Assembly (NCBI GenBank): GCA_012295275.1 | Contig: CM022677.1 | Coordinates: forward strand, 4,712,001-4,776,000 | Origin: Chrysomallon squamiferum | Lineage: Eukaryota; Animalia; Mollusca | DNA: 64,000 bases | Direction: 5' to 3' | Part shown: one piece after another, positions 9,553 through 63,876 of the stretch | Layout: the number at the start of each line of letters is the position of its first letter | Numbering within the stretch: position 1 is the first letter of the stretch | Notes under the pieces: generated by a model | Database searches by the model: none | What the model was told of the DNA's origin: nothing | Seen by the model: only the letters and a program-made list of their open reading frames with translations | Position numbers and translations under genes: made by a program

Positions 9553-9660
9553 ATCTTGGATGAAGTGTGTGAGAAACATTGGTGGGGAAAGCCAGTCTAC
9601 GAGCTTGATTCTGTGAACCACAAAACAGCTGCTGGTGAAAGAAAAATGTTCTTTTTCCAG
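9553..9660 (+). CDS. A1CF: A1CF-like dsRBD exon 1, left copy
   Basis: ttttacag|ATC...CAG|gttggt; 36 open codons containing the WGKPVY dsRBD motif. Confidence 0.85.
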
Positions 9661-9818
9661 GTTGGTGCTACTTGAGGATGGCTGTATGTTCTCTGATAAT
9701 GTACACATCCTTGATTTCTTACTTTCTAAACAAACAGTAAAAACAGTATTTTTTAAACTAAAAAGCAAATAAAAGAAGCACTGTGTGTGTACAAAGAAAT
9801 AACCTTCTTCTCTTTCAG

Positions 9819-9933
9819 GTGACAATTCCAGGTCTGAGAAAAATGTTTTGTCCGGATAAACTGAGTGACACAATTGAGGAGGCAGAAATCTACGCAGCAT
9901 AGTACGTCCTTTCACGTCTGAGAGTGAGCAGTA
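9819..9933 (+). pseudogene. A1CF: A1CF-like dsRBD exon 2, left copy, with nonsense TAG (9900-9902)
   Basis: tctttcag|GTG...AGTA|gtgagt. The right copy has GAG (Glu) at the same codon. Confidence 0.85.
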
Positions 9934-10130
9934 GTGAGTACTCACTTCTTTGATGTATGTAACACTTGCATGTCTCAGACTCAACAGTAAGTACTCACTT
10001 CTTTGATGTATGTAACACTTGCATGTCTCAGACTCAACAGTAAGTACTCACTTTTTTGATGTATGTAACACTTGCATGTCTCAGACTCAACAGTAAGTAC
10101 TCACTTCTTTGATGTATGTAACACTTGCAC
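9934..10130. repeat. 53-bp intronic tandem repeat, ~3.7 copies (partner 63250-63495, ~4.7 copies)
   Basis: gtactcacttctttgatgtatgtaacacttgcatgtctcagactcaacagtaa units. Confidence 0.95.
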
Positions 10131-10499
10131 ACTGATCATTTATTTATTTATGCTTCTTTTAAAGACATACTTCACTATTGCCCTGACACTGGGTTTTGTA
10201 CATCTCAGTTTGTTTATTCCTTTGCTTTCCAGATTTATCAAAATTTATTAATATGAACATAGTTACTAATCTATGGTTTCAGCATTAATTACTAATCAGT
10301 ACTTGAGATTAAAACATCTTCGAATCCAGTTAATAAAGACCTTTTTTTTTTCTTTTTTTATTTTAAAATAATTAAAATTAATGTTCTGTAATTTCAGATG
10401 CATGTGGTTATCCTAGCCTGCAGTTAATGTATTTCTAATCTGTGTATTTTATTTTAGGGCTCTGTCTAATTTGATATATAACAGTGATGTGATTTAATT

Positions 10500-11175
10500 T
10501 TAATTGTATGACTGTACCAGCAGTAATCAGTGAAGTGTAGATTTATTTTTTAATTGTATGACTGTACAAACTAATCATTGAAGTGTAGATTTATTTTTTA
10601 ATTGTATGACTGTACAAACTAATCATTGAAGTGTAGATTTATTTTTTGATTGTATGACTGTACAAACTAATCATTGAAGTGTAGATTTATTTTTTGATTG
10701 TATGACTGTACAAACTAATCATTGAAGTGTAGATTTATTTTTTAATTGTATGACTGTACAAACTAATCATTGAAGTGTAGATTTATTTTTTAATTGTATG
10801 ACTGTACAAACTAATCATTGAAGTGTAGATTTATTTTTTAATTGTATGACTGTACAAACTAATCATTGAAGTGTAGATTTATTTTTTAATTGTATGACTG
10901 TACAAACTAATCATTGAAGTGTAGATTTATTTTTTTAATTGTATGACTGTACAAACTAATCATTGAAGTGTAGATTTATTTTTTTAATTGTATGACTGTA
11001 CAAACTAATCATTGAAGTGTAGATTTATTTTTTAATTGTATGACTGTACAAACTAATCATTGAAGTGTAGATTTATTTTTTAATTGTATGACTGTACAAA
11101 CTAATCATTGAAGTGTAGATTTATTTTTTAATTGTATGACTGTACAAACAGTAATCAGTGAAGTGTAGATTTACT
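10500..11175. repeat. 48-bp minisatellite, ~14 copies, occupying the position of a lost exon
   Basis: aattgtatgactgtacaaactaatcattgaagtgtagatttatttttt units. Only ~1 unit exists in the right copy (62820-62878). Confidence 0.95.
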
Positions 11176-12660
11176 GGTCTAAATTTAACTTGAAATAAGT
11201 TCTAAAAGTATTTTTCAATTCAACTCTTCCCTGAAAACTGGTTTTAATATATTTTTTCATAGTTCTGATTGCTCAGATATATGTTTAGTTAATAAGTAAA
11301 ATGAATAAACATCATCTAAGCAGAAATTTATTGTTGATAAAATACTTAAAACTATATGAATTACTAATTACATTAACCTGACAAAGACATATACAAATTA
11401 GTATTAAAAGCATACAGACATTTAATCAGCTGAAAGGACATTGTTTAGATTTTACATTGTGTTTATGTTTCAGATCCTCAGTATCCTGGAGCACATGGAT
11501 ACCACACTTATCATTCCATCCCTCAACAACCTTCTCTGTATGAATACGAAACTTATCATCGCATCCCTCAGCAGTGAATGTGTTTCATCTATACACACAG
11601 TTTTGGCTGATACCCATGTATCAGAGGAGTTTTAATTTTTATTCTTCTTTGTAGATGTTTGATACAAATCTGGATTTGTTCTGAACAACATAGGTTCTGC
11701 ATGTTTGTGAACTATTTACTTTTTTTTTTAAAGTCGACCTATGAAGATGCTAGTTACACTGTATTTTATATTTATAGTATTTTTATTTGTTTTGTTCAAA
11801 GACTTTAGTATATATTTGTACAATCAGAATCAAAATTTTGGTGATTGTTCACCAGTGAAAGAAGATTTGTTCAAGTATGAGTGAATGTGTTTCATCTATA
11901 CACACAGTTTTGACTAATACATGTATCAGAGGAGTTTTTATTTTTATTCATCTTTGTAGATACAAATCTGGATTTGTTTTGTTTACTGAACAACATAGGT
12001 TCTGAATGTTTGTGAACTGTTTGCTTTTTTTATTTTTAAAAGCTACATTTGAAGATGCTAGTGAATTTTATTTGTATTTTATTTTTATAGTATTTTTTAT
12101 AAAAGTTGATTCCTTAAAATTCCATACAATACAAGACTTTTAAACAGAAAAACTTTCTATTTTACTTCATTCTCACTTAAAAATTTGTATTCCTATCTGT
12201 CCGTGTTTATAACCACCACGACCACTGTTACAATTTGTACTACTACTACTACTACTTCTACATCTACAACTACTAATAATATTACCGCTACCATGACTAC
12301 AATTTATATTCTGTAATCCTCCCTCCCTCCCTCTCTCTGCCTCTGTCTCTCTCTCTCTTATTATTATTTTTATTACTATTACTGTTGTTGTTGTTATTAT
12401 ATTCTTATTATTATTTTTATTACTATTACTGTTGTTGTTATTATTATATTCTTCAAATTATTTTATTACTAAGACTGTTGTTGTTATTATTACATCATTA
12501 TTATTATTAGAATGTGAAGAGGATTCTTTGTGTTACAGTGATAAGTACATTCGGTATGCTGGTGAGTTAATAACATTTAGAGGACATAAAATGACAGGAG
12601 AGTTTAGATAATATTAATATTCATTAGATGAAAAACAGATTAGTTTGGATAGAAGATTAG

Positions 12661-13131
12661 CAGGTCAGTGAGTGTGAAATATCTGATGACTGTTCCAGTG
12701 ACAGCTCAGACAGAGAGGACACGAAACTGAAATCTGTCAGACGATGTACAGCGCAGATTAGAAACTATTTACATTAACTGAACAAAAACAGTCTGAGTGA
12801 ATCAGAAAAAGAACTAAAGTTGGAAATAGACAGCAAGGAAAAACATTCTGATGAATCAAAGCTTCAGGAAAATAGTTGAGAAAAGGAAGATTCTGCGTAC
12901 CTAAATATACAAGAGATACACGAGAATTTAACTCACAGAGAAGACAAAGAGAACGTGTTAAACAATGACATGTCTGGGAAAAGTGAAAACTTAAAATCAG
13001 AGACTGTTGATGAAGCAAGAGATGATAATACACACAATGTTGTAAATTATCAAACACAAGATGAAACTGCGTATTTTAACCCACAGATATACAATGAAAG
13101 ACTCATCGGATTAATGATAACATTTAAGTAA
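12661..13131 (+). pseudogene. Decayed charged/acidic coding segment, unidentified
   Basis: About 155 codons in one frame with only 2 internal stops (QVSECEISDDCSSDSSDRED...SESEKELKLEIDSKEKHSDESK...), unusual in DNA this AT-rich. Confidence 0.45.
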
Positions 13132-13397
13132 GTTAAAGCACTTACTTTAAACCAGAAGTCTTAGTGTGAAAGAGGGAAATTTGGAGTAAACCCAGTGAAA
13201 TGCCTCATGAGTTATCTCCTTTTACACAATATTCACATCGTATAATCTCAGCTAGCAATTCAGAAAGTACAAACGTTTTAGTTACATTTTCCTCCTCAAT
13301 ATCTGTACATATAATTATATTAAGCCTTTTATACAAATTGTTAAATCTGAATATTTTGCAGTTAAATAAAATATTAATATTTTTGTTCTGTTTATTT

Positions 13398-13545
<148 letters not shown>

Positions 13546-14031
13546 CAATATGAATGCAGTGAATTATTCAGAGTTAGTCCAGCCGGAGCAAGATACTTAT
13601 CTCCCTTATGTCGTTGTATATGTGTGTATTCATATATGTAAGTATGTATATTTATGTGTTTGTAGTATCTATACATGAGGTTATATGTGTATATATATAT
13701 ACAATCAATCGCATACACATACGCACATACATATATGTATACATGCATGTATCTGTAAATGTGTGTCTGTATCTCTGTGCGTGTGAATGTGTATATGTTA
13801 TGTTTACGTATAATCATATGTAAACTTGTATGTAGATGTTTTAATACTACATAAACAAAGATATCAGTGTAGCAGGGTACTTCCATGTTTAGTTTTTTGT
13901 GAAATCCCTTTCCACAGTACGTGCGTATGAAAGGCTTGTAATTGGTGTGAGTGCGATGTGTGTGTGTGTAGATTCGAGGCTCGGTTGAAGGCTTTGGAGC
14001 ACGTGACACGTATGGCTTGATAGTTGTGTGC

Positions 14032-14280
<249 letters not shown>

Positions 14281-15008
14281 TTCCTGTAATACATTTTGAA
14301 ACTCATTTTCTTTGTTTTCCCCGACTGTTAGTTGTATGGGTTGTGGTGTATATCAGAAAGAATTTCATGTAACAAAAATAATTAAAATCTACGTAATAAA
14401 TAAATAAATAAATTTAAAAACAGTGTTGCGTTTTTCTTCCCCATTACATGATATTCTGTAAATCTTAACCAAGCGAAATTTGTTGTAAAGTGCTTTATGC
14501 ACGTCTCTAAGGAGAAAAGGTTACTCAGCAAGTCATTTTTTTTATATATATAACCTTCACTACCACTAAGATTGTACCTCGATATTAAAGATAAACACAA
14601 CTTGCTAAAAGAAAAAAAGGTGAACCCTAAACATATTAACGTTTTAGATTTCCTAATTTATCCGTACTAAAAGTATTTAATCGTCTATATCTTAATTAAT
14701 CTTCATATACAACCTGTCACAGAAAACGTCTTTTCGCTTACACAGCCAGTGATTTCCAAAAAAAAAAAAAAAAATTAAAAACAAAATTTAAAAAAATAAA
14801 AGGAATCGTAAGAGGCCCTAACAGGGACTATTACAATTGGAAATGAAAACATTACAAAAATGCTTGTACATCGATTATGATACGAGACTGAAACAAGGCA
14901 AACAATATCCAGAAAGATTCCATTATTTATTTATTTTTGTAATTATTATATCACTTACAGACTGAAGTTTATTATTATTATTATTACTGTTTTTATTATT
15001 ATTATTAC

Positions 15009-15069
<61 letters not shown>

Positions 15070-15159
15070 TGTATGTGTGTATATATAACCAAAACATCAT
15101 CTACTAAAATAAATTTTATTTTATCACTTTTTGTAACTATGTAAGTTTGTTCTGCAGTA

Positions 15160-15329
15160 TGAGTGTGTGTGTGTGTGCTGTATTGTTTGTGTGTAGAGCT
15201 GTTTATCAATTAATATTTATTTGTTGTAGTGTGATGGGAAGATCTGTGTTTTCAAATGATAAAACAGAGTTTTGAAGATGACCAGGAGTCACTGAGTAAA
15301 GACAAAGTTATTTAGTGCATCTCTGTGTC

Positions 15330-15423
<94 letters not shown>

Positions 15424-15653
15424 TGTGTGTGTGTGTGTGTGTGTCTGAGTGTGTATGTGTGTGCTGTGTTGTTTGTGTGTAGAGCTGTTTATCAATTAAT
15501 ATTTATTTGTTGTAGTGTGATGGGAAGAACTGTTTTTCAAATGATAAAACAGAGTTTTGAAGATGACCAGGAGCCACTGAGTAAAGACAAAGTTATTTAG
15601 TGCATCTCTGTGTGTGTGTGTGTGTTTATGTGTGTGTGTATGTGTGTCTGTGT

Positions 15654-15687
<34 letters not shown>

Positions 15688-15930
15688 CTGTGTGTGTTGT
15701 GTGTGTTTGTATTGTTTGTGTGTAGAGCTGTTTATCAATTAATATTTATTTGTTGTAGTGTGATGGGAAGAACTGTTTTCAAATGATAAAACAGAGTTTT
15801 GAAGATGACCAGGAGCCACTGAGTAAAGACAAAGTTATTTAGTGCATCTCTGTGTGTGTGTGTGTGTGTATGTGTGTGTGTGTGTGTATATGTGTGTGTG
15901 TCTATATGTGTGTGTGTGTATGTGGTGTGT
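15160..15930 (+). repeat. Triplicated ~135-bp exon-like unit separated by (GT)n tracts
   Basis: agagctgtttatcaattaatatttatttgttgtag|tgtgatgggaagaactg...gacaaagttatttagtgcatctc occurs at ~15195, ~15481 and ~15724. Confidence 0.9.
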
Positions 15931-16737
15931 GAATGTGTATTTGTGTGGTGCATGTGTCTTATTTTATAAAGTATGTATTTGTATGGTATGCATTTTTGTC
16001 TGTTTTATATATATATATATATATATCTGTGATGTTTTTGTAATTGGGTCTGTTTATACTGTGTGTGTGTATATGTGTGTCTGTGTGTGTGTGTATCATG
16101 TCTGATAATGTGTGTGTGTGTGTATGTGGTGTGTGAATGTATATATATATATATATATTTTTGTATATATACTGTGTGTGTGTATTTTGTATTTGAGTCT
16201 GTTTATACTGTGTGTGTGTGTATATGTGTTGTATATGTTTTACATGTATTGTGTGTATGTGTGGTGTGTATTGACTTATTTTTGTTTATATGTTAAAGTG
16301 AACCTTTTTTTAAGAAATACCAAGTTTACATACTGTATGTTTCCTTATTAGCTTTAAGACTAACATTTAACAACAGATAAATAAATGTCTATGCTTTTCA
16401 GACAGGAAACACACACATACACTATGTATGTACAGTATACAGGCCATGTATTTTCCAGTTGAGTGTACTGTTAAGCAATAAACATATGTGCTCAAAATAA
16501 GGTAACCAATTTTATCATTGTCATTGTTAACACATTATCATTCTGATAATTATCATCATCATCATTATTATAGTTATTAGTATCATTTTATTGTATTAAC
16601 ATCATTATTTTTGTTACGATTTATGTTTTATTATTTATCATACCATTATTATAAATTATTATTATTGCTGCTGTTGTTGTTGTTGATGGTGTTTTATGGG
16701 TTTGGTTTTGTGTTAACATTAAATTATCAAATGATTG

Positions 16738-17797
16738 TTCTGTTTTATGATTTATTAACAAAAAGAAAACAAAATAAAAACTCTAAATGTAAGAATTATT
16801 ACTGTTTTATGATTTATTATACTGTTAACAAAAAGAAAAGAAAAACTCTAAATGTAAGAATTGTTACTGTTTTATGATTTATTATACTGTTAACAAAAAG
16901 AAAATAAAAACTCTAAATGTAAGAATTGTTACTGTTTTATGATTTATTATACTGTTAACAAAAAGAAAACAAAACAAAAACTCTAAATGCAAGAATTATT
17001 ACTGTTTTATGATTTATTATACTGTTAACAAAAAGAAAAGAAAAACTCTAAATGCAAGAATTATTACTGTTTTATGATTTATTATACTGTTAACAAAAAG
17101 AAAAGAAAAAACTCTAAATGTAAGAATTGTTACTGTTTTATGATTTATTATACTGTTAACAAAAAGAAAAGAAAAACTCTAAATGTAAGAATTGTTACTG
17201 TTTTATGATTTATTATACTGTTAACAAAAAGAAAAGAAAAACTCTAAATGTAAGAATTATTACTGTTTTATGATTTATTATACTGTTAACAAAAAAACTC
17301 TAAGAAAAACTCTAAATGTAAGAATTGTTACTGTTTTATGATTTATTATACTGTTAACAAAAAGAAAAGAAAAACTCTAAATGTAAGAATTGTTACTGTT
17401 TTATGATTTATTATACTGTTAACAAAAAGAAAAGAAAAACTCTAAATGTAAGAATTGTTACTGTTTTATGATTTATTATACTGTTAACAAAAAGAAAATA
17501 AAAACTCTAAATGTAAGAATTATTACTGTTTTATGATTTATTATACTGTTAACAAAAAGAAAAGAAAAACTCTAAATGTAAGAATTGTTACTGTTTTATG
17601 ATTTATTATACTGTTAACAAAAAAAAAGAAAAAAAACTCTAAATGTAAGAATTGTTACTGTTTTATGATTTATTATACTGTTAACAAAAAGAAAAGAAAA
17701 ACTCTAAATGTAAGAATTGTTACTGTTTTATGATTTATTATACTGTTAACAAAAAGAAAAGAAAAACTCTAAATGTAAGAATTATTACTGTTTTATG
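16738..17797. repeat. 65-bp minisatellite, ~16 copies
   Basis: ctgttttatgatttattatactgttaacaaaaagaaaagaaaaactctaaatgtaagaattgtta units. Confidence 0.95.
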
Positions 17798-23700: not shown

Positions 23701-24639
23701 TAGAAACCTTTCCAGCTTAACAAAATACTTTAATCCAATAATATAAATTATTTCATGTTAGAGAAACAAATCCATTTGCCTATAAAAATATTTCCATATT
23801 ATTACTAATTTGTTATTATACTTAATATTTTAATTCTCTGCATCATCTGTAGGAACTCAGAAGTCAGGCAAATGAAATTCTTGATGATATGGACATACCT
23901 GGAAACCCTCTTGGTCTTTTCAAAGATGTCAGGGAAAGATCTCTGGCCTTGTTAATGGAAATGTGAGTGGATTTCCTAGAAATGTTGTCATGTGGTTCTA
24001 ATTCTGCAGCAAAGTTAGTTGTGGCAGTTCCCTGTATTACCTCTCTTTGAGGGAATGGTATTTTATTTAATCAGAAATAAAACTTTTAATTTTTAACTAG
24101 AAACCTTTTTATTCAAATTCAGTTTACTCTAAATTTACAACAATGTAAATAAAATGATATAAAAGCTTATGGTTTTAAATCATGCTTAGGAAATTATATT
24201 ACAAAATTACTGAATACTTTTCTTGTTTTAATAACCGTACAAATGCAAGCTTGCCTTCAGTGAATGAACTGTTTTATATTGTTAAAGAAAGAAACATTTC
24301 TTTAAGTATTTTGTTAATTTGTTGTGGTAATTGATGCAGTATTTCTCTAGAGAAGCAAAAATCAAAGAAATTATCATATATTAATATTGTTATTAGCATA
24401 ATATTTTTTGTTTTTACTATTATTGCTCTTTTTTCTTCTTTGTTTATTTATTGTTGTTTTTTTTTCTTTCCTTTTATTTTCTCTCTTTTTATGAAATTAA
24501 TAAATTGTAGATTATTTCAAGATTATGAACATCTTGTACAGGTAGCAGTTCTGTATTTGACAGGTACAATCTCCATGGAGACCAGTACACTCAGACTGGT
24601 GAACTAAGAAAAAGGGAGGTAATTCATCATTTCACATTA

Positions 24640-24935
24640 CAGCAGGTGTTAAGAGTCTGTGATATGAAACACTGGTTTTACACTCTTCATGCAGAATTCC
24701 AGGACATCACATACCCTCTTCTTTACATGTTCCTTCCAAACAAGACTCAAGCTACTTATGTCTCAGTTTTTCAACTCTTGAAGATTGAAGCAGAAAAAAA
24801 CTTCAATTTGAATCCACAGATTATCTAGACCGACTTTGAGAAAGACGTCTCCAGTGCAGCAGTGAAAGAGTTCAAGGAGATGTTTTTTCAGCAGTGCCCA
24901 ATCACTGTGGAGGAAGATTCAGCATATTGGTCATA
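24640..24935 (+). mobile_element. Mutator/MULE transposase fragment
   Basis: FYTLHAEFQDITYPLLYMFLPNKTQATYVSVFQLL...NPQII*TDFEK...SLWRKIQHIG matches the MULE DDE-domain pattern YTIH..PLVY.LLP.K...Y...DFE...WRKIQ..G. Confidence 0.85.
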
Positions 24936-25956: not shown

Positions 25957-25987
<31 letters not shown>

Positions 25988-29608: not shown

Positions 29609-30317
29609 CAGGGTGGCCCAGATGTAACCGAACCCGAAAGCTCAATCGATGATCACTGATTTCAAGTCTGCTTCACGAAGTACCGAAGCGATCGATATCA
29701 GGGAGAACTGGTAAAGAGACTTCACGTGCATGGCTGTGTTAACCGGTTTCGTCATCACCACTGAAAGTGTTGCAAAGCCTATTTAAGAGAGGACGGAAAC
29801 CTTCTTCTTTGATAGTCTTCGTTTTATCATTTTTGTCGCCCTCTTTCATTTAACAGACATGGCCAACACACGACACACTTTAAAATTGGAAAAACGTATT
29901 CATGCTGTTAAAAGTTATTATTTGGCAGAGAGGAGTTATAAAAATGTTATTGATCATTGGAATGAATCGTTTGATACACCACCTCCATCAAAATCGTCAA
30001 TCTACGAATTGGTACAAAAATTCAAACGAACTGGCAACGTCGCCGACGCGTATAAACCTGGTGCACCAAGAACAATGAGGACAACTGCCAACCAGGAATT
30101 AGTAGCATCATCATACGTCAACAGTCTTGCAAATCCCAGAGACGTGCTTCTGCAGAGCTGCGCATATCACGATCTTCTTTACAACGCATCACGTCAGATA
30201 TTGGCTTGCACCCATATCGTCCGCGGGAACTATGGGCTCAAAAAAAAAGTAACTGAATCAACCATTGAACGATGTCATCACTGTATTACAAATAATGGTT
30301 ACATCTGGGCCACCCTG
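29609..30317 (+). mobile_element. Non-autonomous (internally deleted) Tc1/mariner element, 709 bp, with perfect 21-bp TIRs and TA target duplication
   Basis: TA-CAGGGTGGCCCAGATGTAACC (29609-29629) ... GGTTACATCTGGGCCACCCTG-TA (30297-30317). ORF 29859 encodes a DUF4817-like HTH N-terminus (PPSKSSIYELVQKFKRTGNV.D...GAPRT); the catalytic domain is deleted. Confidence 0.93.
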
Positions 30318-30664
30318 TATATTGTAAAACAATGACAAAAAAACAACAACAAACAAACAAGTACAATATAGTTTTTAAAATCAATTTTAAGGTTTGAAAT
30401 ATTTCTTACTCTTACTACTCTGTTAATGTTAAATATACACTTTAGAGATATGCAGAATTAAATTGTTTCATGACAAGATCAGAAAAAATCAGTAAATTTT
30501 TTATTGAATGTAAAAATATTAGGTGTTCTTCACAAGGATGGAGTATGCACAAAGACTTAATCACTGAACAGTAACTCGAATCATTGAGCTACAAATGATG
30601 AGGTATGAATGAAGTTATATGTACAAACACAAATGTACACATCCATGCAGATAAGAACATACAG

Positions 30665-32082: not shown

Positions 32083-32119
<37 letters not shown>

Positions 32120-36822: not shown

Positions 36823-37880
36823 TGTGGTCCCCCTTGGATAAGAATATCTGATTTGTCAGGGTGTGGTCAAGGTGGTGCATGCACAACCACAGAAGCCTGT
36901 ACTGGAGGATCATGTAACAGAGGTGATTATTTTAATTTATATAGCAGGAAGAATTTTAAAATGACCAAGAATTAATTCCTGTGTCTGCTTTCATCAAAAT
37001 TATAAATCTAGTCATATCAATAAAGAGCTTCTTAAATTATTTTTATAATTAGGTGAATTGAATATGTGTTAAATTTGATGAAACTGTCTGCATTTTCTGT
37101 CTAACGTCTGAAATACAAAATTATGTGTTTAGCATTTATCTATGACATTGTTAAAAACTATTTAATTCTCAATTTTATTTTATTTATTTATTTATTCTTT
37201 AATTTTACTCTTACAGCTGACCGTGCCTGGACTGCATGGTCACTTCAGAGACTGGGTAGTTGTGGTGAAACATGTGGTAGAGGCACTAGAAGAAGATTTG
37301 AGATAAGAACATCAACAAATTCTGCACACCTAAGAATGGAGGCAAAGATTGAGGAACAGATGACAGGAGGAATCTTCACGAAGCATGTGAAACAAATGTC
37401 TTATGTCCAGGTAACAAGCAATAATTAAATCAAATATATTCATACTGTAATTTTCTTTTAAACAAATTATAAACAGACAGGTGGCATGTTGTTTCCTGTG
37501 AGGCATCTGTTCTAAGATGACAATAAATAACAATCTCTAGATTGTGAGGAAAGGTGTTGTCACTAAATAATCTGAGGAATAAAATTACTTCTCTGCCTAC
37601 AAAAGTGAAATGTGATTCAAATAATAAAATATTTATTTAATGATTTCTCTAAAATTCAGTTGTTAATGATTTGGTGGAACTTTAAGGCCAATGAATTACA
37701 TTAGGTTTATTGAAATCCATTAAAACCATTACATTTCTAAAGTTATAATGTATATTTTTATTCCATTTATTCAAAACTATTTTTGTTAGTGCTTATGTTT
37801 ATGGTGCCTGATCTGCAACATGTGGATCTGCTACACTGACTGGTAGAAGGTTATTTAACAATCTAGCTGATGATCCATGC
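36823..37880 (+). pseudogene. Thrombospondin type-1 (TSP1) repeat gene remnant; exons ~36823-36922, 37217-37410, ~37790-37879
   Basis: DRAWTAWS...SCGETCGRGTRRR..RTSTNSA/PKNGGKD*G...EACETNVLCP follows the hemicentin-type TSP1 consensus (W..WS..CS.TCG.G.R.R.C..P.P.NGG..C). It has a frameshift and a TGA at a conserved Cys. Splice sites are canonical. Confidence 0.8.
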
Positions 37881-41070: not shown

Positions 41071-41270
41071 NNNNNNNNNNNNNNNNNNNNNNNNNNNNNN
41101 NNNNNNNNNNNNNNNNNNNNNNNNNNNNNNNNNNNNNNNNNNNNNNNNNNNNNNNNNNNNNNNNNNNNNNNNNNNNNNNNNNNNNNNNNNNNNNNNNNNN
41201 NNNNNNNNNNNNNNNNNNNNNNNNNNNNNNNNNNNNNNNNNNNNNNNNNNNNNNNNNNNNNNNNNNNNNN
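41071..41270. other. Assembly/scaffold gap (200 N)
   Basis: Run of exactly 200 N. Confidence 1.
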
Positions 41271-43865: not shown

Positions 43866-46139
43866 ACACACACACCAAAAAATATAATTCAAGAACAAAA
43901 ATTAAAATATTAAAATAAAATGAGTAATAAATAGAAAGAATAAGAAAAATTCTAATTTAATAAACAACAACAACAACAACGTTTCTCTCCTATCAAAAAA
44001 TATAAAAATACCTAATAAATAAATCAAAAATCTATAGATCTGCAAGAAAACCCAGCTAACAATTATTGTCAAACTATCATCAGCTGCAGCATCAGGCTTC
44101 TGTCATGTTTGCTTGCAGTTTCAAGGGCAGCTCACTCTGTTCTCACATGATACCTGACTGAGGTTCAGTTGATGTGGGGCTGTCCCGCTGTTTGCTCATT
44201 GCTCTAAGTGCCGCACTGATTATTTAAATTAATATTGTGTATTATGACATTTAGAGTCACCAAGCATCAGAAAAATTACATTTTGTTATATTAGTTTTTA
44301 AAGTAGTCTAGCCATTATTTGTACTTTACAACTACCAGTTACCTACTTAAAGGTGTTAGACATTTTTGTTTTTGTTTTTTCCTTTTTCTTTTTTAATATA
44401 CAATGATAGGAAGTATTTATCGAATGCAGTAAAAAAAAAAAAAAAAAAAAAAAACATTAATATTATCAATATTTTTACTGTCAAACAATTTTTATTTCGT
44501 TTCCTGGCACTAGACAATGTCAGTGAAATGAAAACAGAAGATCCCATAATTAACTATTACTTATTATAAATGTATTTGCAGTATTTGCAGTACACAGTAG
44601 ATGCTTTTCCTCCCCTCTGAAAAATAATCATGAAGCTAACAAAGTTCATGCAAAACATTTAACTATAGTCAGAAAGAGTACAAATATCTAGAAGTAATAT
44701 GACAAATAATGGTTTTAGGGAATGTTTTGTATTAAGTACATTTGAGGGATTCAACTAAAGCATCCATTGTAATCTTTGGTTTCACTGAAAACACGTAGAG
44801 TCTATTTCTGTTTGTTTAAAGTACTTGGGTGCTGGAAGACACTTGGGACATCTACAAACACTGCCACTGAGATTGTCTTAACAAAAGCAAGACAGTAATG
44901 GTCTGTCAGTATTGTTCAGGTGTGTGAGATGTTGTCAGTGTGACTGGGGTGAAAGGTAGGTCAGCAGAAAAGACAGAATATCTGGCAAGAGAGAAAGATG
45001 TCTGAGTCAATTCTGTACATTATATTATCAATTGTCTAAAATATTATACTATCATCATGAATTAAAGAATGTAATGAACAAAGACACTGTGTGGATTTTA
45101 TGAGAGACAATCCTAACTTATTACAAATGATGACAGTACTAAAAGTTATCATCAAGCAATGAATAAGAGGAGAAATATTCACAAAAAATAAGAAGATAAA
45201 TCCTACAACTTGCAGTCTATCACATGAAAAATTTAGTATAACAAATACAAACAAAAAACCCAGGAATTGAAACAGAAACCGTATTTATTCAAGTAATACA
45301 AAATAGGAATCAATTAAATATCAAAATAAAAATATTCATGCCTACTGAAGCATAGGTCTGGAAATATGTCATGTTTCTCAAAAAGAACACCTCTTGCAAG
45401 TTATAGCCAGAGCTTAGAGGCACCTTTCCTTCTAGAGGTTGCATGTATGTACACAATCACATCAGTTTATTACTTACTAAATATCAGTCAAACAATTCCA
45501 AATGTTTAAATTACAGGAAAATGTTGCCACAGTTCAATTTTCCACTGGAAGTCAGAACAGTCAATTTTCCTCAGATATAGAGCCTTAATAGACAGATTAC
45601 AAATACAATTTACAATCAGCAGAAAGTGAATATAAGTGATAACTGTGGATAATGCTAGAGATCAGAAATAGAACACTGCATGTTTTTAAACCTCAACAGT
45701 TTGACAAAAGAACAGTGAGAAGTCTTGAATATTGAATATTTTCATAATTTGATGACAGCTAATTTATATATATATTTACTAGAGAAAACACAACAAAACA
45801 AAATAATAACAATAAAGAAAATTATAAAATTATAAAATCAAAACTGAGAAATAATTGTAGATCAAGATATAGTGCACAATATATCCTACTGTATTTTCTA
45901 CTAAAAGAGCGAAGAGGGCTGAGCTAACAGAATTGACAAATATTCAGAATATTTCAAGTTCCAGTAAAGATAGAGCAAATCAGAGAAGAATTAACAGAGG
46001 CTTTATTTTGAGATTATTTAGATAATGAGAGTGGCGGACGTAATGACATAGGTGTAACTCAGAGTATGGCAGAATCACTGCTATTAGAGGATTAACCTTC
46101 GAACAAAAATTAAATTTTAAGAAGGTAGAACATAAAAGT

Positions 46140-47180
46140 GATAGAGTGAAAAGAGAGTATGAAAGAAAAGAAAATGGAGAGAGAAAAGACAGAGACAAGG
46201 AAAGAGAATTTCAGATAATTAAACAGAAAATGGAGCACAAACTTAAAATGAGAGGAGAGTTCAGAGAGAATTCAAGTGAGAATCCATCGAATGGTTTTAG
46301 AATCAATAATTGTTACAGGTCAGTTCCTAATTTTGATGAGAATGATGTTGAAATTTTCTTTCTCGAAAGAGTGTCATTTGAATCTAAATGGCCAAAACTT
46401 TTTGGGCATTTATTAGTTCAGAGTAAATTAACAGGAAAGGCTGTTCAGTATATAATTCACTGGATAATAGCTTAGCGGAGTTAAATATGTCTGTTGATAA
46501 TATCCCACAGATTAACTGCAACATGAAGAGTCTGTGTGAAACATTCAAAAGTGATCCATCTTTGAAAGCGGTGTGTTCAAAAATAGTGGACAAAAACAGA
46601 GTGAATGTTTTCATGTGCATAATATGTTGATGAAGAAAACATTAAATAAAATCATGTCGAATGAAAAGGAGAAGTATGAATGTTTTCAAATTGAAGTACC
46701 TATAATATTCAGAAAAGAAATATTTAGTTTAAGTCATGAAAATGTGTATTCACGTCATTTGGGGTGAAGATATGTGTGCAGTGCATCAGACTTTTACTGG
46801 CTAGGAATGTATCACAACATAAAGAAATTTGTCAAAACTTGTGAGGTGCCATAAAAATGGGAAACCAAATCAGGTTATTACCCTGACACCCCAAAAATGG
46901 GTGCCAATCAGTGGACCTGCTTTTTCAAAAGTGTTAGCTGATATTGTGGGACCACTGCCCAGAACAAGCCAGGGGAACAAAAATCTGTAGACAATAATGT
47001 GTGTGAATACTAGGTTCCAGAGGCAATCCCATTATGTAAGATGACAACTAGTGTGGTAACAAAAGCTCTGATGAAATATTTCATGATGACTGGTTTACCA
47101 GATGAAATTCAGTCTGATCAAGGCTCAAATTTCATGTCAAAATTATTTTAGCAAGTCATGGTTATGTTACAAATGCATCA
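46140..47180 (+). mobile_element. Decayed Gypsy LTR-retrotransposon: gag N-terminus joined to integrase (PR/RT/RH deleted)
   Basis: Gag VPNFDENDVEIFF..ERV...WPK....LVQSKLTGKA; integrase zinc finger SHE....HLG...FYW.GM...IKKFVKTC; core FSKVLADIVGPLPRT..GN...EAIPL...GLPDEIQSDQGSNFMSKLF. Multiple stops and frameshifts. Confidence 0.9.
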
Positions 47181-47874: not shown

Positions 47875-47905
<31 letters not shown>

Positions 47906-49008: not shown

Positions 49009-49729
49009 TTGAAATTTTGTCTTCTTCACTTTCCCTGTAATGAGAAATTATTACTATAATCATCACAGCTATCATCTTGTGATGTAACTACATCACAAAC
49101 ACTGTCCTCGTATAATGAGAAATTATTACTATAATCATCACAGCTATCATCTTGTGATGTAACTGCATCACAAACACTGTCCTCGTATAATGAGAAATTA
49201 TTACTATAATCATCACAGCTATCATCTTGTGATGTAACTACATCACAAACACTGTCCTCGTATAATGAGAAATTATTACTATAATCATCACAGCTATCAT
49301 CTTGTGATGTAACTACATCACAAACACTGTCCTCGTATAATGAGAAATGATTACTATAATCATCAGAGCTATCATCTTGTGATGTAACTACATAACAAAC
49401 ACTGTCCTCGTATAATGAGAAATTATTACTATAATCATCACAGCTATCATCTTGTGATGTAACTACATCACAAACACTGTCCTTGTATAATGAGAAATTA
49501 TTATTATAATCATCACAGCTATCATCTTGTGATGTAACTACATCACAAACACTGTCCTCGTATAATGAGAAATTATTACTATAATCATCATCATCTTGTG
49601 ATGTAACTATCACAAACATCTTGTGATGTAATCATCACAGCTATCATCTTGTGATGTAACTACATCACAAACACTGTCCTCGTATGCTTGCTCCTCCTCA
49701 AAAGGCTGATCTTCATCTGACCTATCAGT
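49009..49729 (-). pseudogene. Acidic exon containing ~8 copies of a 75-bp / 25-aa repeat (VVTSQDDSCDDYSNNFSLYEDSVCD); part of a decayed or mis-assembled minus-strand gene
   Basis: tttcag acceptor, unique lead-in TDRSDEDQPFEEEQAYEDSVCD read in the repeat's peptide frame, open 197-aa ORF across the array, AA|gtaaga donor. Frame breaks at ~49620 and ~49030. Other exon-like blocks at ~47385, 47555, 48777, 49925 and 50270. Confidence 0.5.
49038..49685. repeat. 75-bp tandem repeat, ~8 copies
   Basis: tataatgaga recurs at 49111, 49186, 49261, ..., 49561. Confidence 0.97.
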
Positions 49730-49839: not shown

Positions 49840-49906
<67 letters not shown>

Positions 49907-51746: not shown

Positions 51747-51781
<35 letters not shown>

Positions 51782-54810: not shown

Positions 54811-55524
54811 GAAATGATGTTTTCTTGTATGCAGGAAACTAGTTAAGAAAAAACAGTAAAATAAATGAGTAAATAAATATTTGAAATGAATTAAAAAATA
54901 AAATAAATAGCAGACAAAATAAAATAAAAGTAAATATAAATATAAATAAAGTATGGTACAGTGAAGTAAATGCAGGGAAAGTTAAAATTGTTGAGACAGA
55001 AATAATATTTAAAAAATTATCAGATACACACACAAACTCTCTATCATTGACACAAACATACACACAGACAAGACCTTTATATTAGCTAAGTTTTCATCTC
55101 CTGCAATGCTTAACAAAATAGATTCTACACAAAACATTTGATAAAAATACTGTAAAAGTCTTTACATACCTCTCCTCATCTGTTCAGTTCACCAGAACCC
55201 ACAGTGTATTTGAAAGCAGAAACTGAGTCTTCATATATTCAGGTTACTAATGGAATCTCCAATCCTGAAGATGAATAAATGTCATAATTAGATGTCTTTA
55301 AACATGTCCAAATGTACACAAGTGTAGTTAAAATTATATTGTATGTATATTAAACATCCATGCTGAGCTATATTCCTGTGACAAAACATTTTTCAAGATG
55401 TAAATCTTAGTTCTACCTTTAATGGAGGAATACACGTATAAACAGACTGAGGGACACAGACATGTAAATAAATAAAACTATAGAGATTGGTAAACAGAGA
55501 AAATGATGTAGAAGTAAAGAGATC

Positions 55525-55582
<58 letters not shown>

Positions 55583-56599: not shown

Positions 56600-56890
56600 C
56601 AATATGCTGAATCTTCCTCCACAGTGATTGGGCACTGCTGAAAAAACATCTCCTTGAACTCTTTCACTGCTGCACTGGAGACAGCTTTCTCAAAGTCAGT
56701 TTAGATAATCTGTGGCTTCAAATTGAAGTTTTTTTCTGCTTCAATCTTCAAGAGTTGAAAAACTGAGACATACGTAGCTTGAGTCTTGTTTGGAAGGAAC
56801 ATGTAAACAAGAGGGTATGTGATGTCCTGGAATTCTGCATGAAGAGTGTAAAACCAGTGTTTCATATCACAGACTCTTAACACCTGCTTC
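56600..56890 (-). mobile_element. Mutator/MULE transposase fragment (duplicate of 24640-24935)
   Basis: FYTLHAEFQDITYPLVYMFLPNKTQATYVSVFQLL... Confidence 0.85.
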
Positions 56891-59882
56891 AATGTGATAT
56901 GATGAATTACCTCCCTTTTTCTTAGTTCACCAGTCTGAGTGTACTGGTCTCCATGGAGATTGTACCTGTCAAATACAGAACTGCTACCTGTACAAGATGT
57001 TCATAATCTTGAAATAATTTACAATTTATTAATTTCATCAAACAAACAAAAAATATAAATAAAGAAATAAAGAAAGAAAGAAATATTATTATTTCGTTGA
57101 TTTTGTTTCTAGTAAGAAATAGTGCATCCATTACCATTACAAGTTAATAAAATACTTAAATAAATGTGTGGATTTTTTTTTGTTGTTTAAGAATATAAAA
57201 CAGTTCATTCACAGAAGTAAAGTTTGCATTTGTATGGTTATCAAAACAACATAATGAAAGTATTCAGTAAGGTTGCTAGTAATTTTCTAGTCACAACCTT
57301 TTATATCATTTTATTTACATTGTTGCAAAAGACAGAAAGAATTAAAAAAATATATTTTTAATTAAAACATTAAACCTTTTATTTCTGATGAAATGAAATA
57401 TCATTCCCTGAAAGAGATGTAATACGGGGAACTATCACAACTAAATTTGCTGCAGAATTAGAAACACATAACAACATTTCTAGGAAATCCACATTTCCAT
57501 TAACAAGGCCAGAGATCTTTCTGTGACATCTTTGAAAAGACCAAGAGTTTCCAGGTATGTCCATATAATCAAGAATTATCACTGAACATTAAATAAAGAA
57601 AATACAAAAATAATGTAGCTTTAATTATAAAACAAGAGCACACACACATACAAGTTAACTATTTGACTTTCACTTTTCTTATAAATGTAATAAAAAGTTA
57701 GTGTAAATTAAAATATTCAAAATATTCAAAATTATAAAATTATTTTGTAAAATAAATATTTATTTTTAATCATCTGTTTTTCATTGTGGACATATTGTTT
57801 CTGTGTTTCCTTTCCTGAATGTCTGTAAAGTTGGCTTTGATGATGTACATTAAGAAATTCATATAAGTTCGTTTTGTCATTTGTTCTTAGATTTTTCAAA
57901 ATACTTTCTTTCAATTCAGGTTTAATCTGCATTTTTAAAGCTAGTTTAAACATCATAGTTTATAAGAAAATTTAAACTTTATAATATAAATATGCCAATG
58001 GGAAATGTTAATTTAAATATGCCAGTTAAAAGATGCCTGTTTAAATATGCTAATTTAAAAATATTTTTTATTCATTTAAATTCTTGTATATATCTAGAAA
58101 TGATGAGCTTAAAATAATCATTTTTAGAAATTTATGGATTAAAACAGGAAGTTTAAGGTTAGGAACATCAACAAACTAACATACTAAGTCTGATACTAAA
58201 CTTGAAATTACTCTGTGTTTTCTACATTTCTCTTCACAGTTGTGTCTACATTTTATCTTTTACATGAAGCAGTGAATGAATGAGGCAGGTAGAGTGAATG
58301 GATGAGTGAATTAATAAATATCTGTATAATTGTCAAACCTGATTTCTATTTATTTATTTTGATTTAATGTTGTTAAAAATTAATTATAATGAAAATAAAT
58401 TTGCTGGTACAGGGCTTGTTTTGTTTCTTTTTTGTTTTTTTAACAATTTCAGTTTGTTACTCACTGATTTTCAATGTTAAACATTCTCTTAAGTACTGAA
58501 TACAAAATTATTAACTAGTATAAAATGATATTATAATGCCTAGTAAATACTAAATTTGGGTTATTGTACCAAAACTATATAAATAAATATTCCTCACCCT
58601 GTAATTTAATAAAGCTTGCTAAAAAAAATAGGTGATAAAAACAAAAAACAAAATAATTTGAAATATTTATTTCAACAAGAAAACAACAAAGTTTATCACA
58701 TAATTTTAGAAAATTTAGAAAAGCATGATATAAAATGTTTCAAATTAAAAAGTATTTAAAATATATCTTAAGGTTCTAAAGATTTGTGCTATAAACACAA
58801 AAATGCCAAGATTTCTGATTTATCAATAAAAGTTTATGATAAAATATACAACATAAAATGAAAAACAAGACATTTGTTTACAAAAACTATAAAACTTAAT
58901 AAATAACTTGACAGATAATGTAACCTGAAATTAGTAATTAAGAACATTTGTAATTTCTGATTTTAATCTTCCAAACAAATATATGGCATATATAGGTTTA
59001 CACAACTGATTCCATTTTATGATTTAACAAACTTTTATAGGGTAAATCTTTACCAGAACTCTTGGTATTCTGTTATTTTATGCTTCAGTTACATGATTAA
59101 GTACATTATTTTTTTTTTTTAAATTAAAAATTAAAAATTAAAAAAAATTAAATTATCTCCCTTGAACCATTCATTTTTAATCCGAAGTGTGTAGTTTTTT
59201 TTAAAGCAGTAATCAAGGATTTCTAACATTAAATGATTTTTACAAAATAATTTCTTTTTTTCACAGACTTGACTGTACTTGGTGCTGTGTCTGGTACAAA
59301 CATTCTGTGTACATCTGATTTCATCAACAACACTGTGACTGAGTCTAAAACCATGTCACATTACACATTCTTCAGTAAGAACAGTCCATGATTCACACTA
59401 GTAATGTTTTTAAAATGTTAGTTTGGTGTGGAACTTTCTAAACTCAGTTTTCTCCAGTTATTCAGTTTTTCGTGTTTACTGTGGAGATGTTTCATCTTGT
59501 GTTTACTTAGTTCAGTACAGAAAACTTGACAAGTCATTTAGACTCAGTGGACATCAGTTCTTGTAAATAGCTTTCTATGGTGTCTGAAAAGTAAAATATT
59601 ACATTTTTTTAACAACAACTGCTACAATTTTATATTTTTTCATTTGAATCTGAAGTAATATATGCAACCAATAACAAGTACAGTTAATTTAACTGAAATA
59701 AAATAAAGTTTAAGTTTATTTATTTAAACATTTCTTGTTGCACCTCTATTTTTAACAGTCTGTGGAAATGTTCTGCTAGTCTGTTATTTTGTAAAAAATA
59801 CAGAAGTTTACAATTTTTGGGGTTCATAATAATCAACAAAAATGCCAAGCTGCGTGTTTTTCAGTTTTGTGGTTAACTTGTC

Positions 59883-60050
59883 TTACCCTCACCCCAAACT
59901 CTGACCCCTAACCCTAATCCTCAAACCCTTTGACCTTAATCCTTAACCCCGAACACTAAACTATAACCCCTATCCTTACCTTTAACAGACCCCTAATCCT
60001 AACCCAAGCCTAACCCTAAACCTTACCCTTACCCCTAACTCTGACCTCAA
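59883..60050. repeat. Degenerate (CCCTAA)n interstitial telomere-like tract
   Basis: acccctaaccctaatcc...cctaaccctaaaccttacccttacccctaa. Confidence 0.7.
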
Positions 60051-61874
60051 ACTTGCTATAATTTTACTCAGGAAAGTAAATAAATTGAATTTAAACTTAC
60101 TAACTTTCCTTAGAGAGATGGATAGATAGATATATATAATATTTACTATCTTATTTCCATTGTTATACATTCTTTCTTACTTTTAATTTTTTTTAGGACT
60201 CTTTAGATATATTGGTATTACATTTCAACAACTGAAGCTTAAAACATTGTAACTTGGCCAGAAATAGGAGGACTACGTTCACCTAAAACATTGTGTTATT
60301 ACTACTAGTATATACAACTCATATCTGTCTCCTATCTTGTAGATCTGATGTTACACTGGATTTCTCCTGAATGTCAGATGAAGTAAGCAACACTGACAGT
60401 TACTGTGTTCACTCGTTACCTCTTTGTACTGGAACAAACAAGTTGAAGATAATTATTTAAATAGTGGTAACTATGAGATAACAAAAGCCAGTGATAACAC
60501 TGTTTACCTGTAGCACTTTCCATTCATTAACAGCAGTTAACAGAGTATGTTCTTCAGACTGGTAAATGAAGCTTTATCAAACAGTTTTTTACTATAAATG
60601 TTGAAAAATTAAGACAAGAGTTGGATAGAGAAAAATGCCTTTATTCTTAATTTCACTAAACTATATGAACAAAGAAAAGAACAAAAAATTATTTTCTTTG
60701 TAATTTAAAAAAAAAAAAAAAAAAACATTATCATTTTGAATTTCTGAAAAAAAGGAAACATCTACTGGAATAAAAAAATGAGAAAAAAGACCTGAACTTA
60801 TTAAATAAAATGAAATTAGTCTGGAATACGGAGTTAAACAGTGAATAGATTGCTTCATGTTTATCAGCAGCATTACTCTTTAATATGTTTTGAAAGTATA
60901 ATTTAATATTTCAACATGAATTATGTGAAAATTAATGCATATTACTGCTCAGTATTTCTTTGAAAGGTTTATTTAATATTTCACTTCATTTCTGTGAATT
61001 TAAATGTTCGTGTTGTCATCTCAGTTCAGGTGTCACCACAAGAACATGGGCAGGAAACGTTTTTTATTGATAATTTCAAGTTAAAATGCCTCAAAGAAAG
61101 TAATGTGTACCAATTATGAGAATTTTCTCTATTTATATGCAAATCAGTTTTTTTAATGTTTCCAGTAGACAGCTGGTTTTTTTTGTTTTTTTTTTTTTTT
61201 GTTTTTTTTTAACTTAAAAATGTGTATGTGCACATGTGAAAGAGCACTAAAATTTTGCTTCTGATTGTATAAAAATATACTGGTGACCTCAAGAACACCA
61301 ACCTTGTACTTTGAACAAAACAAATAAAAATACTATAAATATAAAATACAGTGTAACTAGCATCTTCAAATGCCAACTTTTAAAAAAAAAGCAAACAGTT
61401 CACAAACATGCAGAACCTATGTTGTTCAGTAAACAAAGATTTGTATCTACAAAGATGAATAAAAATAAAAACTCCTCTGATACATGTATTAGTCAAAACT
61501 GTGTGTATAGATGAAACACATTCACTCATACTTGAACAAATCTTCTTTCACTGGTGAACAATCACCAAAATTTTGATTCTGATTGTACAAATATATACTA
61601 AAGTCTTTGAAAAAAACAAATAAAAATACTGTAAATATTAAATACAAATAGCATAACTAAAAAAAAAATACTGTAAATATTAAATACAAATAGCATAACT
61701 ATTTATATAGTAAATATTTCAAAAATTTGCATCAAACATCTACCAAGAATAAAAAAAAAAAAAATGATTGAAAACTACTGATGCAAAATAAAACTGTATG
61801 TCTAAATATAACTATAGATGAAACACTAATATGAGTTTTCACTTATACTTTAACAAATGTTCTAACTTTCACTG

Positions 61875-62326
61875 TCAATTGTTGTAATATTGGTATCCAC
61901 ACAGAGGAAGTTTTTGAGGGTTGAGATAATAAATTTGGTATCCACACACAGGAGGTTGTAGAGGGATGAGACGATAAGGTTTGTATCCACTCACAGGAGG
62001 TTGTTGATGGATGGAATGATAAGTTTGGTATCCACTCACAGGAGGTTGTTGAGGGATGGAATGATAAGTTGGGTATCCACTCACAGGAGGTTGTTGAGGG
62101 ATGAGACGATAAGTTGGGTATCCACTCACAGGAGGTTGTTGAGGGATGGAATGATAAGTTTGGTATCCAGTCACAGGAGGTTGTTGATGGATGGAATGAT
62201 AAGTTTGGTATCCACTCACAGGAGGTAGGTGTGGGATGGAATGATAAGTTTGGTATCCACTCACAGGAGGTAGCTGTGGGATGGAATGATAAGTTTGGTA
62301 TCCATGTGCTCCAGGATACTGAGGAT
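61875..62326 (-). CDS. Terminal exon: 45-bp / 15-aa repeat low-complexity tail
   Basis: tttcag|AT CCT CAG TAT...; 150 open codons to the stop at 61875; coincides with ORF 61875..62264. Confidence 0.8.
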
Positions 62327-63876
62327 CTGAAACATAAACACAATGTAAAATCTAAACAATGTTCTTTCAGCTGATTAAATGTCTGTATGCTTTTAATACT
62401 AATTTGTATATGTCTTTGTCAGGTTAATGTAATTAGTAATTCATATTGTTTTAAGTATTTTATCAACAATAAATTTCTGCTTAGATGATGTTTATTCATT
62501 TTACTTATTAACTAAAGATATATCTGAGCAATCAGAACTATGAAAAAATATATTAAAACCAGTTTTCAGGGAAGAGTTGAATTGAAAAATACTTTTAGAA
62601 CTTATTTCAAGTTAAATTTAGACCAATTGTTCTAATATAAAGTTTACAGAAAGAAAACTAATTGTTACTTTGAAGGATATTCCAAGGAGAGAACATCCCA
62701 GCTGGTATTGGGTAGCGAAGTGAACTGGAAGCACTCGGATCTTCAAGTGAACTGGAAGCACTCGGGTCTTCAGGTCGACCTGGATACACGTAGTTCTCAG
62801 CACCTGGGCACAAATCATATAATTAAAAAATAAATCTACACTTTACTGATTACTGCTTGTACAGTCATACAATTAAAATTAAATCACATCACTGTTATAT
62901 ATCAAATCAGACAGAGCCCTAAAATAAAGTACACAGATTAGAAATACATTAACTGCAGGCTAGGATAACCACATGCATCTGAAATTACAGAACATTAATT
63001 TTAATTATTTTAAAATAAAAAAATAAAAGATAACGGTCTTTATTAACTGGATTCGAAGATGTTTTAATCTCAAGTACTGATTAGTACTTAATGCTGAAAC
63101 CATAGATTAGTAACTATGTTCATATTAATAAATTTTGATAAACCTGGAAAGCAAAGGAATAAACAAACTGAGATGTACAAAACCCAGTTTCAGGGCAATA
63201 GTGAAGTATGTCTTTAAAAGAAGCATAAATAAATAAATGATCAGTGTGCAAGTCTTACATACATCAAAGAAGTGAGTACTCACTGTTGAGTCTGAGACAT
63301 GCAAGTGTTACATACATCAAAGAAGTGAGTACTTACTGTTGAGTCTGAGACATGCAAGTGTTACATACATCAAAGAAGTGAGTACTTACTGTTGAGTCTG
63401 AGACATGCAAGTGTTACATACATCAAAGAAGTTAGTACTTACTGTTGAGTCTGAGACATGCAAGTGTTACATACATCAAAGAAGTGAGTACTCACTACTG
63501 CTCACTCCCAGAGATGCAAGGACGTGCTCTGCTGCACAGATTTCTGCCTCCTCAATTGTGTCACTCGGTTTATCCGGACAAAATGTTTTTCTCAGACCTG
63601 GAATTGTCACCTGAAAGAGAAGAACGTTATTTCTTTGTACACAGACAGTGCTTCTTTTATTTGCTTTTTAGTTTAAAAAATACTGTTTTTACTGTTTGTT
63701 TAGAAAGTAAGAAATCAAGGATGTGTACATTATCAGAGAACATACAGCCATCCTCAAGTAGCACAAACCTGGAAAATGAACGACTGTTTTAAATCAGCAG
63801 CTGTCCCAAGGTTTACAGAAAAAAGCTGGTAGACTGGCTTTCCCCACAGATTTTTCTCACACACTTCATCCAAGAG
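61875..63876 (-). CDS. A1CF: A1CF/RBM46/DND1-family dsRBD protein with a Tyr/Gln/Pro-rich repeat tail, right copy (5'-partial); exons 63876-63769, 63610-63496, 62803-62669, 62326-61875
   Basis: Four GT-AG exons (108, 115, 135, 452 nt) splice into one open frame: LLDEVCEKNLWGKPVYQLFSVNLGTAADLKQSFIFQ|VTIPGLRKTFCPDKPSDTIEEAEICAAEHVLASLGVSS|SAENYVYPGRPEDPSASSSLEDPSASSSLRYPIPAGMFSPWNILQ|NPQYPGAH(GYQTYHSIPQQPPVS)x~9.5*. Confidence 0.85.
62669..62803 (-). CDS. 135-nt phase 1-1 linker exon, present only in the right copy
   Basis: tgcccag|GTG...CAAA|gtaaca; open frame; internal 27-bp duplication (EDPSASSSL x2). Confidence 0.7.
63496..63610 (-). CDS. A1CF: A1CF-like dsRBD exon 2, right copy
   Basis: Open frame with the EEAE..AAE..L..LG C-terminal helix motif; canonical splice sites. 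Confidence 0.88.
63769..63876 (-). CDS. A1CF: A1CF-like dsRBD exon 1, right copy
   Basis: Open frame LLDEVCEKNLWGKPVYQL; canonical splice sites. Confidence 0.88.

Follow-up and report, generated by a model that had tools for sequence, protein, structure and literature searches.

In a 64,000-nt stretch of the genome of the mollusc Chrysomallon squamiferum (GCA_012295275.1, contig CM022677.1, positions 4,712,001 to 4,776,000 of the forward strand; the whole stretch is referred to as the window), two inverted gene copies, left and right, each carry two exons for a domain of the double-stranded RNA-binding kind (dsRBD), best read from sequence as the DND1_DSRM type found in A1CF, RBM46 and DND1. 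The two exons differ between the copies far more than the introns do, and nearly all differing codons change the residue. The explanation considered probable is a multi-copy, transcribed set of genes combining this domain with a P/Y/Q-rich tail, which is under diversifying selection, exchanges sequence between copies and would serve as a protein-binding adaptor or decoy in a conflict.

The left and right copies were aligned over exon 1 (9553-9660 with 63876-63769) and exon 2 (9819-9933 with 63610-63496). Differences were found at 22/108 nt of exon 1 and 11/115 nt of exon 2, compared with 3/158 nt of the intron between them, and 21 of the 22 differing codons altered the residue (one to TAG), leaving one that was purely synonymous. 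A first-pass annotation of the window had given these same counts, and recounting reproduced them exactly. Its tenfold excess of exon over intron divergence applies to exon 1 only; both exons together differ at 14.8% versus 1.9% for the intron, a 7.8-fold excess (Fisher test, P = 5 × 10−6). The other intron stretches, described there as about 1-2% different, were measured at 1-4.5% (3/299, 9/361 and 5/112), and all intron stretches of the gene combined differ at 20/930 positions (2.2%). The start of the third exon was likewise in excess (13/97), a figure inflated by the register of its repeat units.

Compared with the introns of the gene, the non-synonymous divergence (dN) of 0.170 is 7.8-fold higher (P = 6 × 10−11). 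Third positions differed at 1/53 codons in which the first two bases agree, which is the intron rate, and at 5/21 of the other codons (P = 0.006). The exon transversions comprised 15 non-synonymous and 0 synonymous changes and exceeded the background (15/223 versus 53/4457, P = 4 × 10−7), indicating that CpG decay is no sufficient explanation. The single purely silent codon compares with 5.5-7 expected under independent neutral hits (P = 0.004-0.019). When variants from the sequencing runs described below were pooled, 8-11 of 54 minimal steps were silent (13-15 expected), and these 54 steps were accompanied by no internal exon indel, the background showing 19 gap openings per 96 substitutions, an expectation inflated by slippage.

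That inflation is one of several points that weigh against selection. The Nei-Gojobori comparison of left and right gave a synonymous divergence (dS) of 0.138 and a dN/dS ratio of 1.23 (P = 0.42); transition weighting gave 1.3-2.3, and the pooled ratio of 1.2-2.3 was significant only under the fewest silent steps or a high transition/transversion parameter (kappa). The ratio is low because five third-position changes sit within replaced codons, and the earlier claim that dN far exceeds dS stands when the introns or the unreplaced codons serve as reference and fails by Nei-Gojobori. Codons with multiple hits were in excess (10/22 versus 4.3 expected, P = 0.0004), and the shortage of silent codons was not significant under a null that retains this clustering (P = 0.08-0.18). 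CpG-type transitions made up 9/33 differences. Doublet changes were in excess as well, and multinucleotide changes can imitate selection in codon tests, as the available portion of bioRxiv 10.1101/165969 describes; such changes would not leave introns untouched.

These points bear on a neutral origin, by which exon-only tracts were received from old paralogs or processed pseudogenes and methylated exons hypermutated at CpG. Such an origin agrees with a classical dN/dS near 1, the one nonsense change, an exon divergence like that of the oldest blocks of the duplicated arms, and the CpG-type share of differences in a CpG-poor window (GC 29%, CpG observed/expected 0.29). With old exon tracts, however, the unreplaced codons should hold 5.4-6.2 silent differences, compared with the one seen (P = 0.015-0.03, or 0.12 for donors at just 10% divergence), so that conversion tracts from an older paralog with proportional synonymous change, a case the first-pass annotation had named as refuting its proposal, do not describe these exons. 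A joined exon 1-exon 2 form skipping the 158 nt was found in 0/5 DNA runs at ≥80% likeness, a search over contigs, which can miss rare or more diverged forms. With all 15 transversions being replacements and no internal indels, a neutral origin is very unlikely, and diversifying or balancing selection of some form is held with high confidence, the case for selection being strong.

Variants were collected from public sequencing runs. Eleven runs were listed, nine contained the stretch and seven were compared (five of DNA or presumed DNA and two of RNA, from three studies), all as contigs. Because contigs lose rare variants, all variant counts are at-least values among the pieces listed. Three features of this sample weigh against diversifying selection on a gene set: the uniformity of the intron gives a lower bound on its variation, the runs may be pools or contain close relatives, and most RNA-only variants are without DNA from the same animal.

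The right exons were recovered with no differences in X1, X3 and X4, exon 1 being exact over 63747-63858 (X1, X3) and 63735-63867 (X4), and a right-type exon 2 was present in X2 and X5. Left exon 1 showed no difference over 9526-9622 in X2 and one over 9550-9657 in a spliced contig of RNA run X9. The left stop codon was seen in 0/7 runs, and direct outside support is missing for three bases of left exon 2: 9900 in the stop, 9921, and 9892, for which depth subtraction in X2 is the only support. An assembly or consensus error, also named earlier as a refuting case, would account for the stop and base 9921, which were not seen outside the window, and is refuted for all but the three unsupported bases by recovery of both exon-1 versions and the right exon 2 in independent runs of three studies; as a general explanation it has hardly any probability.

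A single contig with left-type bases crossed the 158-nt intron in 5/5 DNA runs, and several exon contigs branched off both of its ends. In both X2 and X5, exon-1 contigs numbered four or more and were similar in depth, and two to three exon-2 types were found per run; X5 showed one right-type exon 2 only, alongside at least four exon-1 contigs, one of them near-left. Spliced contigs were present in both RNA runs, and the RNA contigs added exon-2 variants lying 14-18 bases from either window copy and a different upstream exon that is not in the window. When the window and the seven runs were pooled, 33/74 codons varied and 31/74 changed the residue, with three to four residues at seven codons and all four first bases at codon 49; five of the pooled codon states depend on single RNA contigs with a depth of about 5. 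The pooled counts exclude the stop codon, a variant of codon 74 present in a single RNA contig, two insertions of 2 nt that X4 shows at the first base of exon 1 (about 1% of depth), and paired gaps in X2, which merely redraw right-type substitutions. Within the species, 42% of codons vary in residue next to a uniform intron, a degree of variation associated with immune, toxin and gamete-recognition genes. The first-pass proposal of diversifying selection on a paralog set is thus supported and reinforced by the population data.

In the intron ahead of exon 1 (9414-9552 and 63877-64000), several haplotypes with higher summed depth were observed, and a 55-66 nt duplication was present in some contigs, including those of the RNA runs; some copies may be partial. 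A copy number of about 6-12, estimated from depth relative to a chance-matching 36-nt contig, was not used, as contig depth is no copy number. An adenine-directed origin, like that of diversity-generating retroelements, or an editing-type origin was dropped: about half of the variable sites involve A (hand count), and the variants are present in DNA runs.

Combinations of variants within exon 2 point to recombination. Codons 45 and 53, which are 24 nt apart and each differ by a two-base change, occurred in all four combinations across the left copy, the right copy, a DNA variant and an RNA variant, and so did codons 45 and 68. Both patterns depend on the left exon 2 of the window, and one combination is known from the window only, which counts against exchange. 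In RNA, a left-type exon 1 is joined to an exon 2 whose start is not of the left type, and in X5 left-type exon 1 coexisted with exon 2 of the right type alone. Shuffled codons and a uniform intron fit the exchange of short tracts, with amino-acid variants and bases of the same codons alone persisting. Conversion or recombination in short tracts among copies is accordingly held with moderate confidence, and since exon variants recombine, the introns are probably kept alike by conversion. Conversion with selected exons has been modelled for opsins, and a related mosaic described for copepod GOT1 paralogs, in the portions available of PMC3924837 and PMC3728101, respectively; the exchange seen here corresponds to the opsin model of PMC3924837, as excerpted, at a finer scale.

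The copies lie in an inverted collinear duplication (9.4-33 kb versus 64-43 kb). Its divergence is a mosaic: long blocks within 24.5-29.2 kb differ at 1.5% (2190 aligned bases) and 2.1% (1853 aligned bases), and five others, which may in part be dispersed repeats, at 10-19%. Large non-alignable segments set the arms apart. Within one collinear block (23976-24460 versus 57483-57054), the divergence changes sharply from about 16% to 1.5%, a possible conversion-tract boundary.

The arms allow two further explanations to be weighed. Young duplicates under rapid directional selection, with no important conversion, would have introns that mark a recent duplication of about 2% and exons that ran ahead partly by multinucleotide and CpG changes. 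The intron divergence, the third positions of unreplaced codons and the least diverged arm blocks agree on this age, and the doublet excess is in line with it. Within runs, however, the intron varies less than would be expected from 2%, identical codon states recur on differing backgrounds, exon 1 and exon 2 pairings are shuffled and the collinear 10-19% blocks suggest older arms; this explanation is unlikely, albeit the least so of the alternatives. The description of the family as young, given by the first-pass annotation, holds in part, given the mosaic of arm divergence and the recombining exon variants.

Alternatively, the arms could be haplotypes of one hyper-polymorphic locus misjoined head-to-head at the 200-N gap, and the variants alleles of pooled animals kept by balancing selection of an allorecognition- or gamete-recognition-like kind. 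The gap does lie between inverted, collinear arms, the runs could be pooled animals, and 2% is a plausible heterozygosity for some invertebrates. If the runs are single diploids, however, the numbers of exon-1 contigs in X2 and X5 and of exon-2 types per run need several loci, and large non-alignable segments part the arms. One locus is improbable, and a simple balanced allele pair, the second possibility offered earlier, is likewise a misfit with these runs if they are single animals. The multi-copy set under diversifying selection with exchange is preferred.

The gene models are listed in the table below. AG/GT flanks were found on both dsRBD exons, and a GT..AG skip of 158 nt was present in two RNA contigs. 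From the domain onward, the model of the right copy is open for 269 codons, comprising the two domain exons, the 45-codon exon and the nine repeats; its 5' part lies beyond the window. Exon 3 of the right copy is without RNA support and has no counterpart in the left arm, and an RNA contig splices exon 2 straight onto an exon of the last, repeat-coding type. The left copy has a stop in exon 2, no third exon and a short tail; it is probably a private null. The nine tail repeat units (61890-62304, minus strand) differ from one another mostly by residue changes, and the unit number differs by copy.

Features of the two gene copies in the window (positions are those of the window).
Feature	Position	Strand	Remarks
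Candidate promoter and putative first exon, left gene	1300..1504	+	CpG-rich patch ending at GT donor, 1505
Predicted upstream exon, left gene, 89 nt	4442..4530	+	Open frame; AG/GT and phase fit
Left dsRBD exon 1	9553..9660	+	Open reading frame holding exon: Pfam DND1_DSRM 25.9 bits; spliced in RNA run X9
158-nt intron, left copy	9661..9818	+	3/158 versus right copy; nearly constant among copies
Left dsRBD exon 2	9819..9933	+	Premature TAG at 9900-9902
48-bp tandem array	10491..11173	+	Occupies place of exon 3 of right copy
Left last coding exon	11474..11577	+	About two units of 15-residue repeat
Scaffold gap, 200 N	41071..41270	.	Between the two inverted arms
Right last coding exon	61875..62326	-	Nine 15-residue P/Y/Q/S/G/H-rich repeats; 19% P, 15% Y, 14% Q
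Predicted in-frame exon 3, right copy only, 45 codons, S/P-rich	62669..62803	-	AG/GT, phase 1-1, open frame
Right dsRBD exon 2, open	63496..63610	-	Pfam DND1_DSRM E = 0.0055, profile 50-79
158-nt intron, right copy	63611..63768	-	Alignment to left copy
Right dsRBD exon 1	63769..63876	-	Pfam DND1_DSRM E = 9 × 10−5, profile 7-36

Around the putative first exon of the left gene, 11 CpG were counted in 1401-1600, compared with a window mean of 1.2 per 200 nt. The predicted upstream exon has an in-frame ATG at 4525, two codons ahead of the domain, and its frame resembles what we take to be the A1CF linker preceding the dsRBD; it showed no Pfam match and no homologue match. The hnRNPR-like proteins A1CF, RBM46 and DND1 carry tandem RNA recognition motifs (RRMs) N-terminal to the dsRBD. 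Among the 217 open reading frames in 1-9560, none resembled an RRM by eye, and no RNP1/RNP2 pattern was found there; short exons could hide RRMs, or these could lie before position 1. The gene is thus likely RRM-less, as judged from sequence.

Both exons match successive parts of Pfam PF14709 (DND1_DSRM). The open reading frame with left exon 1 scored above the gathering cut-off of 25.7 bits on half of the profile, and exon 2 spans profile positions 36-79 (E = 3 × 10−4). No homologue was returned by searches of a protein database, 50% representatives, PDB sequences and metagenome contigs, the last queried with both the intron pattern and the protein, a weak negative with queries of 28-48 residues. 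Canonical dsRBDs carry a basic KKxAK ahead of the last helix and a GPxH loop. In both copies the corresponding residues are acidic (TIEEAE) and GPxH is missing from the loop, which sets these exons apart from canonical (type A) domains. RNA binding is doubtful because the canonical motifs are absent, and so is the earlier label of RNA-binding paralog.

In low-confidence single-exon models (predicted template modelling score 0.36), the strands at 13-21 and 31-35 agree with the alpha-beta-beta-beta-alpha topology of a canonical dsRBD, as does the last helix, and the first helix was modelled as a strand; searching for folds with the model of half the domain yielded nothing at E ≤ 0.001. Variable codons alternate on the predicted strands (15, 17, 19; 32, 34, 36; 45, 47, 49), their spacing on the last helix is three to four residues, and W11, G12, P14, Y16, F35, V37 and I39 are constant; the limits of strands and helix in the models match. 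This pattern suggests that the fold is kept while the surface changes, with the faces, and hence the exposure of the variable residues, assigned post hoc after viewing the data. A Fisher test of buried against exposed positions (1/21 versus 30/53 variable) was rejected as circular, the split having been chosen after the data were viewed.

In the proposed mechanism, diversifying selection would likely keep amino-acid variants of the gene set, and exchange between copies would likely hold introns and silent sites uniform. The domain, followed by a low-complexity tail and probably without RRMs, may be a hypervariable adaptor or decoy that binds proteins. This role appears the most likely because the basic motif is acidic here and the DND1 dsRBD has been proposed to recruit effectors, according to the accessible part of PMC9537309; the case for loss of RRMs and for a protein rather than RNA partner is weak to moderate. 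The proposed driver is an antagonistic virus or selfish genetic element, with loqs2 and expanded fly RNA interference (RNAi) factors, compared below from partial sources, as precedents. More speculatively, and rather doubtfully, the A1CF-type dsRBD could have become, in an animal lineage, an RRM-less family of hypervariable intracellular receptors or decoys, similar to the major histocompatibility complex, with surface codons shuffled by very short conversion tracts, which would recognise fast-evolving viral, symbiont or transposon proteins.

Other elements were noted in the window. A short thrombospondin type-1-like stretch (37105-37428, plus strand; weak Pfam E = 0.03) probably represents an exon from a different gene lying between the arms. 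An open reading frame at 29787-30335 (plus strand) with a DUF4817 helix-turn-helix (E = 7 × 10−9) is transposase-like, CpG-rich and confined to the left arm. Broken open reading frames at 6600-7480 (minus), 24529-24828 (plus), 56701-57000 (minus) and 46047-46475 (plus) are presumably relics of hAT, MULE and gag-type transposons and gave no convincing Pfam match. At 49026-49631 (minus), an open frame of 201 codons consists of D/S/Y/C-rich 75-bp tandem repeats, and its Pfam match is probably a repeat artefact; at 12620-13130 (plus), open E/N/K/D-rich stretches have no right-arm counterpart and no Pfam match.

A search of open-access papers returned no report of such a hypervariable family for an A1CF/DND1-type domain, and a motif search of the literature gave no match. 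The evolutionary pattern is already known from opsins and toxins, and what is new, as far as the open-access literature goes, is its occurrence in a DND1_DSRM-type domain. If true, a domain of conserved mRNA regulators would be a new arena of genetic conflict or of invertebrate intracellular recognition, and the variable residues could indicate the unsolved binding surface of this dsRBD, of which no soluble form for structural study could be obtained according to the available text of PMC9537309.

The A1CF, RBM46 and DND1 genes are known as single-copy. In the part of PMC9537309 available, their proteins are regulators that contain RRMs and whose dsRBDs are poorly conserved from one paralog to another, and canonical dsRNA-contact residues are reported as partly missing in DND1, as they are missing in the window exons that match the same profile. 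Unlike these genes, the present set comes in many variants carrying a single species label; in the 9.5 kb upstream no RRM exon was seen, and a repeat tail follows the domain. Red/green opsins, as excerpted from PMC3924837, share introns homogenised between duplicates with divergence limited to selected exons, and uniform introns with divergent exons among copies were found here as well. The opsins form two fixed classes at few sites in that excerpt, whereas 31/74 codons with up to four residues vary here, and the old silent divergence of an opsin-type protected exon was absent, with third positions at 1/53 and silent change within replaced codons only. Snake three-finger toxin genes are also a multigene set in which exons diverge beyond introns and scaffold positions are retained; in the portion of PMC2474615 available the toxins are secreted and switch segments, whereas a predicted intracellular RNA-binding-type fold changes codon by codon here. 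Aedes loqs2 (PMC10809485) and the Drosophila r2d2, AGO2 and Dicer-2 expansions (PMC12697358) are likewise fast-evolving, dsRBD-bearing duplicates tied to viruses or germline conflict. In contrast to the present set, these duplicates arose from RNAi-pathway proteins and were compared across species, and the excerpts of these papers report no hypervariability within a species beside uniform introns.

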